Virus record (IMG/VR): IMGVR_UViG_2695420646_000007
Source: a virus
Lineage: Duplodnaviria; Heunggongvirae; Uroviricota; Caudoviricetes
Strand: one strand, 5' to 3'
DNA length: 14,203 nucleotides
Shown here: positions 10,931 to 14,031 of the stretch, one piece after another
Position numbering within the stretch: the first letter of the stretch is position 1
How the letters are laid out: the number at the start of each line of letters is the position of its first letter
The notes under the pieces: generated by a model
The model's input: the letters and a program-made list of their open reading frames with translations, nothing else
The model's database searches: none
What the model was told of the DNA's origin: nothing
Translations under genes and position numbers: made by a program

Positions 10931-10942
10931 TTAAAGGAAAAG

Positions 10943-10971
10943 TTGCTGTCTGATTGTCATTAGTCTAACAT
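10943..10971 (+). promoter_or_regulatory. Candidate late promoter pR' (TTGCTG, 17 bp spacer, TAACAT)
   Basis: TTGCTG at 10943..10948, 17-bp spacer, TAACAT at 10966..10971, immediately downstream of Q and about 60 nt upstream of an intrinsic terminator, as in the lambdoid pR'-tR' arrangement. Confidence 0.35.
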
Positions 10972-11030
10972 TTTAAATGTTGGAATCGCAACGTAGTTAT
11001 TATCATATAACAGCTTGTTTCCTGATTTAG

Positions 11031-11057
11031 CCAGCCTCCCCAAAGGCTGGTTTTTTT
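11031..11057 (+). terminator. Intrinsic terminator, candidate tR'
   Basis: CCAGCC-TCCCCAAA-GGCTGG hairpin (11031..11050) followed by TTTTTTT (11051..11057). The U-tract follows the hairpin only on the plus strand. Confidence 0.6.
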
Positions 11058-11085
11058 CTAATAAGTATTATTTCGGGTAGGGATT

Positions 11086-11610
11086 TTATTGTTTAACCCA
11101 TAATAATTCATTGACATTGAATCCCAACTTTTGAGCGGTTCGCACATAGTCTGCTTTTACTTTATCTGGAATAGTTGGGGTCCTTGCCAGAATCCATAGG
11201 TATTCTCTGTTCGGACCACTGACAAGAGCATACTTATACTCATCATCCAGTTTGATTACATTATAGCCACCATAGAAGGGGCCAAAAAACGAAACCTTCA
11301 ATGCTGCAGTTTTAGTATCTCCAGTAAAGTATGCTTTACCTTCGCTCTCGCTCCATTTATTTTTCGTTGGATCGTATCCACGGTTAAGTACACGAATCCC
11401 TCCGTCGTTCCGTTTTCCATAAGTAGCGCTGACCTGTTCCAGACCACGTTCGAACCGGTTCTCGAGGCGAGCTATTTCATACCATTTTCCGAGGTAGCGG
11501 TTGGCGTCAAAATTTGTAATCGGCTGCACACCTTTAGGTGGTGTCGGGGCCTTACATGCTATAAGAGTGAAAGAGAGTGCAATGCCAGTCAACACAGGCC
11601 ATAACTTCAT
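11086..11610 (-). CDS. Blc-family bacterial lipocalin, predicted outer-membrane lipoprotein
   Basis: 174 aa; lipobox LIAC at the end of the signal peptide; FDANRYLGKWYEIARLENRFERG and VSFFGPFYGGYNVIKLDDEYKYALVSGPNREYLWILARTP closely resemble E. coli Blc as I recall it. RBS AGGA present. Confidence 0.85.
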   Translation of the reverse strand: MKLWPVLTGIALSFTLIACKAPTPPKGVQPITNFDANRYLGKWYEIARLENRFERGLEQVSATYGKRNDGGIRVLNRGYDPTKNKWSESEGKAYFTGDTKTAALKVSFFGPFYGGYNVIKLDDEYKYALVSGPNREYLWILARTPTIPDKVKADYVRTAQKLGFNVNELLWVKQ

Positions 11611-11802
11611 AATAAATCCTGTACTTTTGATAGTTGAGAGTAAGTATGAAAGATAGATGATTACGACCGATCACTTAAAGAACTTTCATACTATATTAGG
11701 AATAGTCCATAACAGAAAAATTGTCAGTGATGACGCCAGAAAGGCAATTTATTCCGTGCACTACACAGTTTATGTGTTAATGAATTAGTCAAGGGGGAGA
11801 AT

Positions 11803-12762
11803 ATGATAAAAAAACCTGTGATTGGAATCAGCGGTTGTTTGGCCGGTTCTGCTGTTCGTTTTGATGGTGGTCACAAAAGAGCTGACTTTTTAATGGACAA
11901 ATTAGTGGAATGGGTAACATTCAGACCAGTATGTCCGGAAATGGCTATAGGGCTGCCAGTTCCGCGTCCTGCTCTACGTCTTGTGCGCTCGACGCAAGGA
12001 AATATACGGATGTGTTTCAGCCACGACCAGAATGAGGATGTGACAGAGAGAATGACAGAGTTTAGTCGTTCTTATATGGACAAATTAAAGGATGTATCGG
12101 GGTTTGTGGTTTGTGCTAAATCTCCCAGCTGTGGCATGGAGCGCGTGCGTGTCTATGATGAAAATGGTAATCGAGGTCGTAAAGATGGAGTGGGACTATT
12201 TACGAGCACTTTGATGGAAAAGTTTTCCTGGCTACCGGTTGAAGAGGATGGGCGATTACATGATCCAGTGCTTCGTGAGAATTTTGTTGAAAGAGTTTTT
12301 GCTTTGCATGAGCTCAATCACCTTTACAAGGAGAAATTATCAAGAAGAGAGTTATTAGCTTTTCATAGTCGTTATAAGCTTCAGTTGTTGGCGCATAGTC
12401 AGGCAGGCTATAAAGATATGGGACCATTTGTGGCTGCAATACACGAGTGGGCGGACCTTGAATCATACTTTGAGGTGTATCGTGATAAGCTGATGGCGAT
12501 TCTCAGAAAACCTGCATCACGTAAAAATCACACGAATGTGCTGATGCATATACAGGGGTATTTTAGTAACTACTTAAGTACACGCCAGCGTAAAGAGTTG
12601 AGCGAGGTTATACTTAACTATCGTTCTGGCACATTACCTCTTCTTGCGCCGTTGACTCTGCTGAAGCATTATCTGGGTGAGTATCCTAATGATTACTTGC
12701 TTACACAGAATTACTTCGATCCCTATCCGGACGAACTGGCTCTAAGACTGATGGTAAATTAA
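11803..12762 (+). CDS. Fused DUF523 (TudS-like, candidate [4Fe-4S] thiouracil desulfidase) and DUF1722 (YbgA-like) protein
   Basis: 319 aa; strong RBS AAGGGGGAG. N-terminus MIKKPVIGISGCLAGSAVRFDGG is typical of DUF523; Cys12, Cys44 and Cys104 are at positions close to those I recall as cluster ligands in TudS. The longer C-terminal part is called YbgA-like by length and memory of the fused family. Confidence 0.7.
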   Translation: MIKKPVIGISGCLAGSAVRFDGGHKRADFLMDKLVEWVTFRPVCPEMAIGLPVPRPALRLVRSTQGNIRMCFSHDQNEDVTERMTEFSRSYMDKLKDVSGFVVCAKSPSCGMERVRVYDENGNRGRKDGVGLFTSTLMEKFSWLPVEEDGRLHDPVLRENFVERVFALHELNHLYKEKLSRRELLAFHSRYKLQLLAHSQAGYKDMGPFVAAIHEWADLESYFEVYRDKLMAILRKPASRKNHTNVLMHIQGYFSNYLSTRQRKELSEVILNYRSGTLPLLAPLTLLKHYLGEYPNDYLLTQNYFDPYPDELALRLMVN

Positions 12763-13113
12763 TTGTATGCGATATCATCCAAAAGGATGAGTTCCTGCAT
12801 GCAGGATATTTACAATCGTAAAAACTACACTATGATACCCAGAGTGTCAGTTTGTATAAAAACTCTGTTTACGCTGAAGAAACAATTGAGATGCAACTTA
12901 AAGTTAGTAAACATGCCAGTCAAAATATATAATATTATGATTCCACGCAGCTATATATAATATAACAGATTGGTTTAATAATTTGTCTTTGTGAGTTAAA
13001 TACATAATTTTATACTTGTGATGCAATGAAATTTTCCTTATTGTTGAACTGGCGAATATTGATTTTCCACCTATACTTACCTGGTGTAACCCCAATGATA
13101 TCAGGTGGATAAT

Positions 13114-13844
13114 ATGCTATACATATGTTCTATCATTTTGGTGTTGAACTCGTTTGATGTCCGAATTGGTAAAGAAGATATTTTGTTTAAAAAAGGAAGT
13201 GCTGTTCTCATTGATTACAATTTAAAAGATTTTTTTCATCAAATATAGATCATGTAATGATCGTAGATGTTGAAGAAAAAACAGTTAATGATTTCTTTAA
13301 AAGCAACACACTCTCACCTTTTTCTGTAAGAAGGTTTTATCCGGCATACTTGATGGTGGAATGTGAAGATTTTTCATTGTTAAAGAACTTGATTGCATGC
13401 TTGAATTGTGATGGCAGAACTGTGGATTTTGTTAGAAATCAAATATCACTTGCATGTCTTGCTATCTTATCTTCAGAGAAAATAGTGCAAAGTTTTTTAT
13501 TTGGATGTCTTAATAGTTTAGGAAGTAAAGTTAAGGCTATTATTCACACGGATATATCTGCAGCATGGAGACTTTGTGATATATCTTCAAGACTGTATCT
13601 GAGTGAAAGTCTGTTAAAAAGAAAATTAAAGCACGAAGGCTTATCATTTAGTAAGTTAATTCTTGAAGAGCGAATGGTGATGGCGGAAAGCTTATTAAGC
13701 TACAATTTATATTCTGTTGGAAAAGTTGCTGAGATATGCGGTTATGAAAACACGTCATATTTTGTAAGTGTTTTCAGAAGGTATTTTGGTGTTCCTCCCC
13801 ATCAATATTCATCAAGATTTTTTTTAGAAAAAGACATGATGTAA
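13114..13844 (+). pseudogene. AraC/XylS-family regulator (AppY/GadX-like subfamily), split by a frameshift at a T7 homopolymer
   Basis: Frame 1: ATG 13114 to TAG 13246..13248, MLYICSIILVLNSFDVRIGKEDILFKKGSAVLIDYNLKDFFHQI. Frame 3 opens at 13215 (ORF track ATG 13257) and runs to 13844 with a clear AraC-type dual-HTH C-terminus. One extra T in the run at 13230..13236 would fuse them into a 243-aa protein. Surrounded by very AT-rich DNA. Confidence 0.65.
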
Positions 13845-14031
13845 CGTGATGCGTTTTAATGATTTTGTAATTTTCGTATTTGATAATTGTATGATGCTTT
13901 CAGCTACGCCAGAATAATCGCGGCGTTTTTCTTTTTGAATAGATGTTCAAGCCTTACGCTAATGTAACTTCTATACCTTTCCTCTTCGTTCCGAACCGTG
14001 TACACCATCCGTTATTTGCGGAGGTGAGGCT

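Follow-up and report, generated by a model that had tools for sequence, protein, structure and literature searches.

The stretch examined here (the window) comprises 14,203 nucleotides of a Caudoviricetes genome, IMG/VR record IMGVR_UViG_2695420646_000007, and is part of a lambda/DLP12-type prophage of Escherichia coli. From left to right it includes gam, a kil-like gene, an AT-rich two-gene insert, cI, cro, O, P, ren, the nin region and Q, with the nin region arranged ybcN-ninE-ybcO-rusA-ylcG ahead of Q (10553-10930). The subject of this analysis is the 3-kb interval between Q and the holin gene essD. It holds three cargo genes: blc, predicted to encode an outer-membrane lipocalin; rudS, predicted to encode a tRNA desulfidase; and a gene for an AraC-family regulator, which is frameshifted in this copy. 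We refer to these genes with their intervening DNA as the cassette (Table 1). The comparisons described below make it likely that the cassette is a mosaic lysogenic-conversion (moron) unit, occupying an exchangeable Q-holin slot in a DLP12/lambda-type prophage at att-lambda and built from two parts of different origin.

Table 1. Features of the cassette and its edges (window coordinates)
Feature	Position	Strand	Remarks
Late antiterminator gene Q, QuuD type, 125 aa	10553-10930	+	PF06530, E 2e-51
Candidate late promoter pR'	10943-10971	+	TTGCTG-17 bp-TAACAT, read from the sequence
Intrinsic terminator, candidate tR'	11029-11059	+	9-bp stem at 11029-11052, then T-run
blc, Blc-type outer-membrane lipocalin lipoprotein (predicted), 174 aa	11086-11610	-	lipobox LIAC; transcribed against the late operon
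Divergent blc/rudS intergenic region	11611-11802		AT-rich, 33.9% GC; presumed blc and rudS promoters
rudS, TudS (DUF523) + DUF1722 fusion, 319 aa	11803-12762	+	PF04463, 3e-40; PF08349, 2e-40
Predicted sigma-70 promoter of the regulator gene	12809-12836	+	TTTACA-16 bp-TATGAT; 10/12 match
Regulator, N-terminal fragment, 44 codons	13114-13248	+	ended by frameshift; good ribosome-binding site, AGGTGGA
Poly-T tract, recurrent frameshift site	13230-13236	+	T7 here, T8 in intact copies (codons 39-42)
Regulator, remaining ORF, 195 codons, other frame	13257-13844	+	both helix-turn-helix motifs; lacks residues 1-48 and a Shine-Dalgarno sequence
Weak terminator-like hairpin and T-run, regulator-holin interval	13906-13936	+	-8.3 kcal/mol, z -0.2
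Holin gene essD, 5' part, 30 codons	14033-14123	+	from alignment with intact essD
End of ISEc23 (IS66 family), inverted repeat GTAAGCG...	14124-14203	+	100% match to ISEc23 copies

An exchangeable cargo slot between Q and the holin gene

The initial annotation had described a moron cluster between Q and the lysis genes, and comparison of the Q-to-holin interval across related prophages bears this out. Strain ABW_A33 carries a twin prophage at att-lambda, between ybhC and ybhB-bioA, with a backbone 99.4% identical across window positions 1-10912; a minus-strand porin gene between quuD and essD replaces the three genes. A porin also occupies the Q-holin slot in the K-12 prophage DLP12 (nmpC) and in phages ev243 and mEp332. 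Because a near-identical twin prophage and viable phages have a porin in the same place, these alignments identify the interval as swappable cargo. The opposite explanation, that the genes belong to the conserved backbone of a phage family, would suit the high frequency of the cassette and the constant Q and holin types at its flanks, but it is contradicted by those same porin carriers and is extremely improbable.

The alignments also place the edges of the exchange. Relative to the ABW_A33 twin, mismatches are dense from 10756 and homology stops at 10912, so that the last third of Q (from about 10756) and the whole region behind it travel with the cargo; porin and cassette carriers are homologous again from 14021, which is 12 nt short of the holin ATG. 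The region behind Q should hold pR' and the Q-utilisation site, and the C-terminal part of Q would be co-inherited with its DNA site.

The cargo differs from the rest of the prophage in base composition, with 31.6-43.8% GC versus 46.8% for window 1-10500. Both blc and rudS have 43-44% GC and the regulator gene 31.6%; the very AT-rich DNA previously noted around the regulator is real, at 31-32% GC over 12763-13844. The description of the three genes as non-phage-like does not hold, as each cargo protein has its own PHROG family, with function given there as unknown. Searched with PADLOC, the three proteins matched no defence system.

By a search with a 3.7-kb query, counting as carriers those genomes in which at least 80% of the query was covered, 954 of the 5426 complete E. 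coli genomes, or about one genome in six, have the cassette. It also occurs in 12 phage records, including plaque-forming 1H12, Lambda_ev087 and its relatives, and IdasGreatGrand. Among 80 IMG/VR loci found via the lipocalin, the order Q-tR'-blc-rudS-regulator-holin is complete in 74, and the other six are cut short in a manner consistent with contig ends. Two contigs binned as a 'Candidatus Nanosynbacter' metagenome-assembled genome (MAG), JARKOR010000151 (L064) and JARKOR010000135 (L069), carry the cassette at 94-100% protein identity and are most likely mis-binned E. coli contigs.

The nmpC/OmpD-type porin moron of DLP12, ev243 and mEp332 sits in the same slot between a quuD-type Q and an essD-type holin gene, with flanks homologous up to 10912 and from 14021, and like blc it is an envelope protein gene on the minus strand. 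It differs in consisting of one gene rather than three, and in the sequences of the 3' end of Q, the post-Q region and the pre-holin region. The stx operon of Stx phages is likewise cargo placed directly behind pR'-tR' and driven by Q antitermination, whereas the cargo here is non-toxin, includes a convergent gene and has signs of promoters of its own. The slot, its cargo logic and two of the three genes were thus known already, and the regulator is an uncharacterised member of a known family. The current view of lambdoid cargo slots is unchanged. Two points only go beyond routine annotation: the recurrent frameshifting of the regulator, which alone needs explaining, and a phage-borne RudS in a species said to lack it. 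For E. coli, the cassette is a frequent route to a second Blc-type lipocalin, to RudS and to a PatE/Psr-family regulator.

The lipocalin

The initial annotation of the minus-strand gene as a Blc-family lipocalin lipoprotein opposed to the late operon is supported by the ORF, the lipobox and the family score. Its product matches Lipocalin_2 (PF08212) at 7e-44 and scores 316 bits with the NCBIfam Blc model NF007786, above the cut-off of 267. Its translation begins with the signal peptide MKLWPVLTGIALSFTLIAC followed by K, and includes the lipobox cysteine, Cys19. E. coli Blc structures are matched at E values of 1e-68 to 1e-69, with 63.9% identity to the mature chromosomal Blc (PDB 3mbt, E 3.5e-69), and the protein is 97% identical to gp65 of phage 1H12. 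These matches identify it as a Blc-type outer-membrane lipocalin, for which membrane location and binding of lysophospholipid or fatty acid are predicted by family. Blc is anchored in the outer membrane and faces the periplasm, and the earlier suggestion that the lipocalin affects phage adsorption is unsupported. Between blc and rudS, the divergent intergenic region contains one weak promoter-like site, at 11634-11661.

Previously, blc was reported as a moron in more than 50% of 19 infant-gut E. coli lambda phages (Mathieu et al. 2020, PMC6969025). The phages concerned, among them Lambda_ev087 and 1H12, and the gene family are those described here. That report names blc alone; the linkage to rudS and the regulator, and the chromosomal origin proposed below for the pair, come from the present analysis.

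The middle gene is a rudS

The middle gene had been correctly described as a DUF523/DUF1722 fusion with a strong ribosome-binding site (AAGGGGGAG), but the label TudS/YbgA-like was too vague. PF04463 covers residues 7-149 of its product and PF08349 residues 192-309. The protein is 93.4% identical to RudS_vir (gp66 of phage 1H12), has the same length of 319 aa, and keeps Cys12, Cys44 and Cys110, which hold the [4Fe-4S] cluster in RudS_vir and RudS_ST (Table 1 of PMC11417400). RudS is a TudS desulfidase fused to DUF1722 that removes the sulfur of 4-thiouridine (s4U) in tRNA (Jamontas et al. 2024, PMC11417400). In that study RudS_vir was synthesised and tested; every RudS variant tested lowered tRNA s4U when overexpressed in E. 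coli, the tRNA activity of RudS_vir being below that of the other RudS proteins, and Pseudomonas RudS shortened the growth delay induced by UVA (PMC11417400). Judged by identity and conserved cysteines, the middle gene is a near-orthologue of an experimentally tested tRNA desulfidase and can be named rudS in annotation. Its neighbours in 1H12 are the same as here, a blc-like gene (gp65) and a regulator gene (gp67); the 1H12 rudS allele is about 90% identical at the DNA level, and the copy described here lies in a defective prophage.

E. coli was said to lack RudS (PMC11417400), yet the roughly one-sixth of complete genomes that carry the cassette (954/5426) carry through it this eraser of s4U, the UVA-sensing tRNA modification.

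Two further observations concern this gene. Just past the rudS stop, 12755-12815 (+) can form a very stable hairpin (-21.6 kcal/mol, z -5.4), with no clear T-run and missing from the ev087 allele, which could be a terminator or an RNA-stability element. An A7 tract in rudS codons 2-4 (11808-11814) is A6 in one copy of a local set of 61 cassettes, all more than 97% identical.

A regulator of the PatE/Psr group

Intact copies of the regulator encode 243 aa. Identity is highest to PatE (ECs0287, Sakai Sp1), at 53.6% over 235 aa (72% within the DNA-binding domain); PsrA (ECs1087, Sakai Sp4) follows with 39% over the full length and 48% over 159 aa. GadW is 34% identical, AppY and YdeO are 32% identical each, and GadX is 41% identical in the DNA-binding domain only. 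A double helix-turn-helix, PF12833 (2e-14 for the ORF in the window) and PF00165, is found both in the 195-aa ORF and in an intact 243-aa relative. The regulator reaches no curated NCBIfam cut-off, the best model being YdeO (126 bits versus 348; GadX, 85 versus 500). Thus the initial assignment to the AraC family stands; AppY-like was rejected as the best label at just 32% identity, and PatE and PsrA are closer than AppY or GadX. On these identities the regulator is placed in the PatE/Psr group as an uncharacterised paralogue. We found no published name for it, and 'PatE/Psr-family' would serve in annotation.

PatE (Z0321/ECs0287, from prophage CP-933H/Sp1 of enterohaemorrhagic E. coli) is the closest characterised relative. 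It has an identical first recognition helix, SESLLKRKLK, and shares the N-terminal CS(V/I)I motif. Like appY in DLP12, patE is found at the right end of its prophage, whereas the cassette regulator lies behind Q. PsrA resembles the cassette regulator in being an AraC-type protein whose gene occupies the cargo slot between Q and the lysis genes of a lambdoid prophage, and the Q proteins of the two prophages are related (82% identity). The neighbours of psrA are different: a CAAX protease, tRNA genes and effectors. Acid resistance is raised by PatE and PsrB, which both activate gadE and hdeA; PsrA/B act through GadE to repress type III secretion (PMC10877973). By homology to PatE and PsrB, an intact cassette regulator would activate GAD/hdeA acid-resistance genes, adding a member to the prophage regulators that plug into the acid-resistance network. 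Rewiring of the host by the present copy, as first envisaged, is doubtful because the gene is frameshifted.

The predicted promoter of the regulator gene is the best promoter match in the region and also the best-conserved island between two diverged alleles of the variable intergenic region. It implies an AT-rich 5' leader of about 270 nt. Behind the gene, the counterpart in the ev087 allele of the weak hairpin listed in Table 1 folds at -12.1 kcal/mol (z -2.2).

Two side observations touch this family. The cassette-bearing prophage of AR_0369 also has a 99.6% PatE orthologue at its right end (L001, 24304-25047), beside insertion sequence remnants, so that one prophage can bring two paralogous AraC-type regulators. 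In addition, psrA (ECs_1087; L005, 23678-24391) is annotated as 195 aa, but 42 further in-frame codons precede that start and lead back to MVVVCSVI..., the N-terminus conserved in this family; the gene was probably annotated too short.

Recurrent frameshifting at a poly-T tract

The span 13114-13844, taken in the initial annotation as one ORF, is 731 nt long and is not a single ORF, owing to a tract of seven T residues (T7, 13230-13236) where intact relatives have eight (T8). The 195-codon ORF that remains is 99.5% identical to residues 49-243 of the intact protein. With residues 1-48 split off, the conserved xCS(V/I)I N-terminal domain is not intact in the window, as it is in T8 relatives. 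A structure model (mean pLDDT 75) places beta-strands of this domain at residues 3-10, 14-18, 21-25 and 29-34; the 195-aa form would lose all four modelled strands and keep the DNA-binding domain. The 195-aa 'helix-turn-helix protein' annotated in many genomes is such a frameshift remnant.

Out-of-frame copies are frequent. An 81-nt query had exact matches in complete genomes for the T7 version in 214 cases and for the T8 version in 50, and an even sample of 60 from the 518 matching genomes gave 27 with T7, 31 with T8 and two with one base below T7. Among clustered proteins, the 243-aa form is represented by 1131 members and the 195-aa form by 623. Depending on the set, the out-of-frame share among carriers is roughly a fifth to a half. 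An assembly error as the source of T7 was rejected, given its exact occurrence in the 214 complete genomes and a 195-aa cluster drawn largely from short-read assemblies.

In the local set of 61 copies the tract is T8 in 50, T7 in eight, T6 in two and T9 in one, and the out-of-frame copies lie on different single-nucleotide backgrounds with nearest neighbours that are mostly T8. Fifty-five copies had a tract that fit a strict flank pattern, and on their neighbour-joining tree parsimony requires at least seven changes in tract length. A second T8 tract in the same gene (13818-13825, within its last nine codons) served as a control and was of constant length in all 61 copies (Fisher p ~4e-4, without correction for relatedness). 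In other alleles the tract is interrupted by C, and in patE the equivalent tract is only T6. No change from OFF to ON was demonstrable on the 55-copy tree; in one clade T7 has shortened further to T6, a step that resembles decay and not switching. The simplest reading of these tract data is recurrent, possibly selected, inactivation.

A length polymorphism that switches the reading frame (T6, T7, T8 and T9) also invites a different explanation, in which the tract is a contingency locus that turns the regulator reversibly ON and OFF rather than a site of one-way decay. The occurrence of all four lengths, the repeated independent changes against none at the control tract, the out-of-frame share of about 45-48% among the 518 complete genomes (from the even sample) and the abundance of the 195-aa form all speak for it. 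Eight bases are short for a switching tract, however; the T7-to-T6 clade did not restore the frame, C interruptions break the tract in other alleles, the counts are uncorrected for phylogeny or recombination, and selection for loss of a costly regulator fits the same data. We consider a reversible switch quite unlikely. Also unlikely is the wider proposal that the T8 tract is a selected mutational switch and that about one-sixth of E. coli genomes gain RudS only via the cassette; if it were true, lineages would turn a horizontally acquired acid-resistance or virulence regulator off, and possibly on again, by niche.

Probable composite origin of the cassette

Chromosomal neighbourhoods of rudS were scanned in one genome per species, giving 64 loci, two of which are the E. 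coli-like contigs binned as a MAG mentioned above. Chromosomal rudS homologues 66-77% identical to the cassette's occur in Citrobacter, Enterobacter, Kluyvera, Leclercia, Klebsiella, Pectobacterium and related genera. A blc gene about 80% identical to that of the cassette lies upstream on the opposite strand in 43 of the 64 loci, and in Citrobacter sedlakii and one other Citrobacter the blc-rudS spacing of about 190-230 bp is as in the cassette. In Enterobacter, a gene for an MlrA-like MerR regulator and a transthyretin-like gene lie between blc and rudS. No homologue of the AraC-type regulator was found near the chromosomal rudS loci. The absence of an AraC-type gene from these loci, together with the GC contents of 43-44% and 31.6%, indicates a composite cassette, in which a chromosomal blc-rudS pair was probably captured and the AT-rich regulator gene was acquired separately. 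For the capture of the pair, the argument is one of gene order and protein identity.

Proposed expression of the cassette and alternatives

The candidate terminator upstream of the cluster, noted in the initial annotation as tR', is a strong intrinsic terminator (-14.9 kcal/mol, z -4.2, with none of 200 shuffles as good); no U-run was seen on its minus strand. Its T-run (11051-11057) is one base shorter in six of the 61 cassette copies. The pR' candidate upstream was not picked up by a consensus promoter scan; in the diverged allele of ev087 its -35 element and its -10 pattern, TAnnnT, are conserved. Rfam gave no match at gathering thresholds in the whole window and only chance-level matches over 10850-14100, so that no known small RNA (sRNA) was found in the pR'-tR' leader or the regulator leader. 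We also looked for a sequence relation of the cassette to the prophage sRNAs HnrS and StxS, and none was established. HnrS is an sRNA of LEE-positive strains (PMC13502914).

We propose that the cassette works as two joined parts. The first would be the divergent blc-rudS pair at about 43% GC, supplying an outer-membrane lipocalin and a [4Fe-4S] desulfidase that converts tRNA 4-thiouridine to uridine; the second would be the 32% GC gene for a PatE/Psr-group AraC-family activator, with its own conserved promoter and long AT-rich leader. In the lysogen, tR' would stop the constitutive pR' transcript, and the cargo would depend on its own promoters, in 11611-11802 and at 12809-12836. Candidate promoter and terminator elements of the cassette itself are the conserved predicted promoter at 12809-12836 and the hairpins. 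After induction, to judge from gene order and by analogy with stx, Q-modified polymerase would have to traverse all 3 kb of the cassette before arriving at the lysis genes. Since the cassette is retained in plaque-forming phages, read-through across it must work. Late transcription would be sense for rudS and the regulator gene and antisense for blc, and would collide with transcription of blc. The suggestion that the cargo is expressed independently of late transcription would therefore be right for the lysogen and not for the period after Q antitermination. The hairpin and T-run between the regulator and the holin gene could keep lysogenic cargo transcription out of the lysis genes.

Several points weigh against this reading of a two-part conversion cassette. 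All of the cassette promoters are predictions. The TTGCTG-17-TAACAT element is the best pR' candidate, but the alternative cassettes share short islands only, so that the call stays weak and pR' cannot be placed confidently. The regulator-holin terminator is weak in this allele, in contrast to its clear form in ev087. Homology of the blc-rudS intergenic DNA with Citrobacter was looked for and none was found. The regulon is predicted from paralogues only 39-54% identical, in a group whose members differ in their targets, and the physiological role of Blc-type lipocalins is unsettled.

Two other explanations bear on what the cassette is for. RudS may mainly serve the phage, reaching a high level after Q antitermination and erasing the UVA-sensitive s4U8 from host tRNA; lytic growth following induction by UV or sunlight would then be spared tRNA cross-linking, the stringent response and an arrest of translation, and such a role would be compatible with a benefit to the host as well. 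Behind pR'-tR', rudS is the first gene to be read in sense, its orientation being that of the late operon, and functional phages retain it; these points agree with a role for the phage, as do the lowered s4U and shortened UVA growth delay on RudS overexpression (PMC11417400). Yet rudS, with its own intergenic region and a strong ribosome-binding site, has stayed intact in a prophage that is lysis-defective, and the tRNA activity of RudS_vir is the lower one among RudS proteins, so that a mainly phage-serving role seems somewhat unlikely. The other explanation makes the cassette one regulatory unit, the AraC-type protein controlling the divergent blc and rudS promoters and not host acid-resistance genes. 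AraC-family regulators often control neighbouring genes, and in phage contexts linkage of all three is close to invariable (the 74 of 80 loci given above). Against such a unit, no regulator of this kind accompanies the chromosomal blc-rudS loci, where an MlrA-like MerR gene often takes its place; the regulator gene stands 12 points apart in GC content, and copies with a frameshifted regulator still have blc and rudS intact. The targets of PatE and PsrA/B, which are the nearest relatives of the regulator, are gad and hde genes of the host (PMC10877973). Control of the pair by the cassette regulator is thus very unlikely, and a two-part cassette with separately acquired genes remains our preferred account.

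Decay of this prophage copy and other inserted genes

The holin ATG lies at 14033, as the initial annotation implied, but a break just inside the gene had been overlooked, as had the frameshift of the regulator. Alignment with intact essD showed that the gene is broken after codon 30, at 14123/14124, by ISEc23. This essD/ISEc23 junction is absent from all complete E. coli genomes in the collection. With its holin gene split by ISEc23 and its regulator gene frameshifted, this prophage copy is lysis-defective with a damaged regulator. The prophage in the window is decaying, and among its cargo genes only blc and rudS are intact.

Other inserted genes were noted elsewhere in the window. The AT-rich insert between the kil-like gene and cI (1791-3442, minus strand, 32-39% GC) is an overlapping gene pair encoding a DUF3037 protein of 268 aa and a HipA-like kinase of 282 aa (PF20613, 1e-6). 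The pair has weak PADLOC matches to the candidate systems PDC-M66B and PDC-M03A, which suggests a prophage defence or toxin pair. In the nin region, the ren-ybcN interval (7382-8873, plus strand) encodes a DUF4145 protein of 250 aa and holds an ORF of 160 aa that matches nothing in Pfam; PADLOC gave no matches for these proteins. The ABW_A33 twin annotates a broken DNA polymerase III theta-like gene between the DUF4145 gene and the 160-aa ORF. Finally, a YdaT_toxin-domain protein of 181 aa is encoded at 4544-5089 on the plus strand, at the position of cII in lambda.

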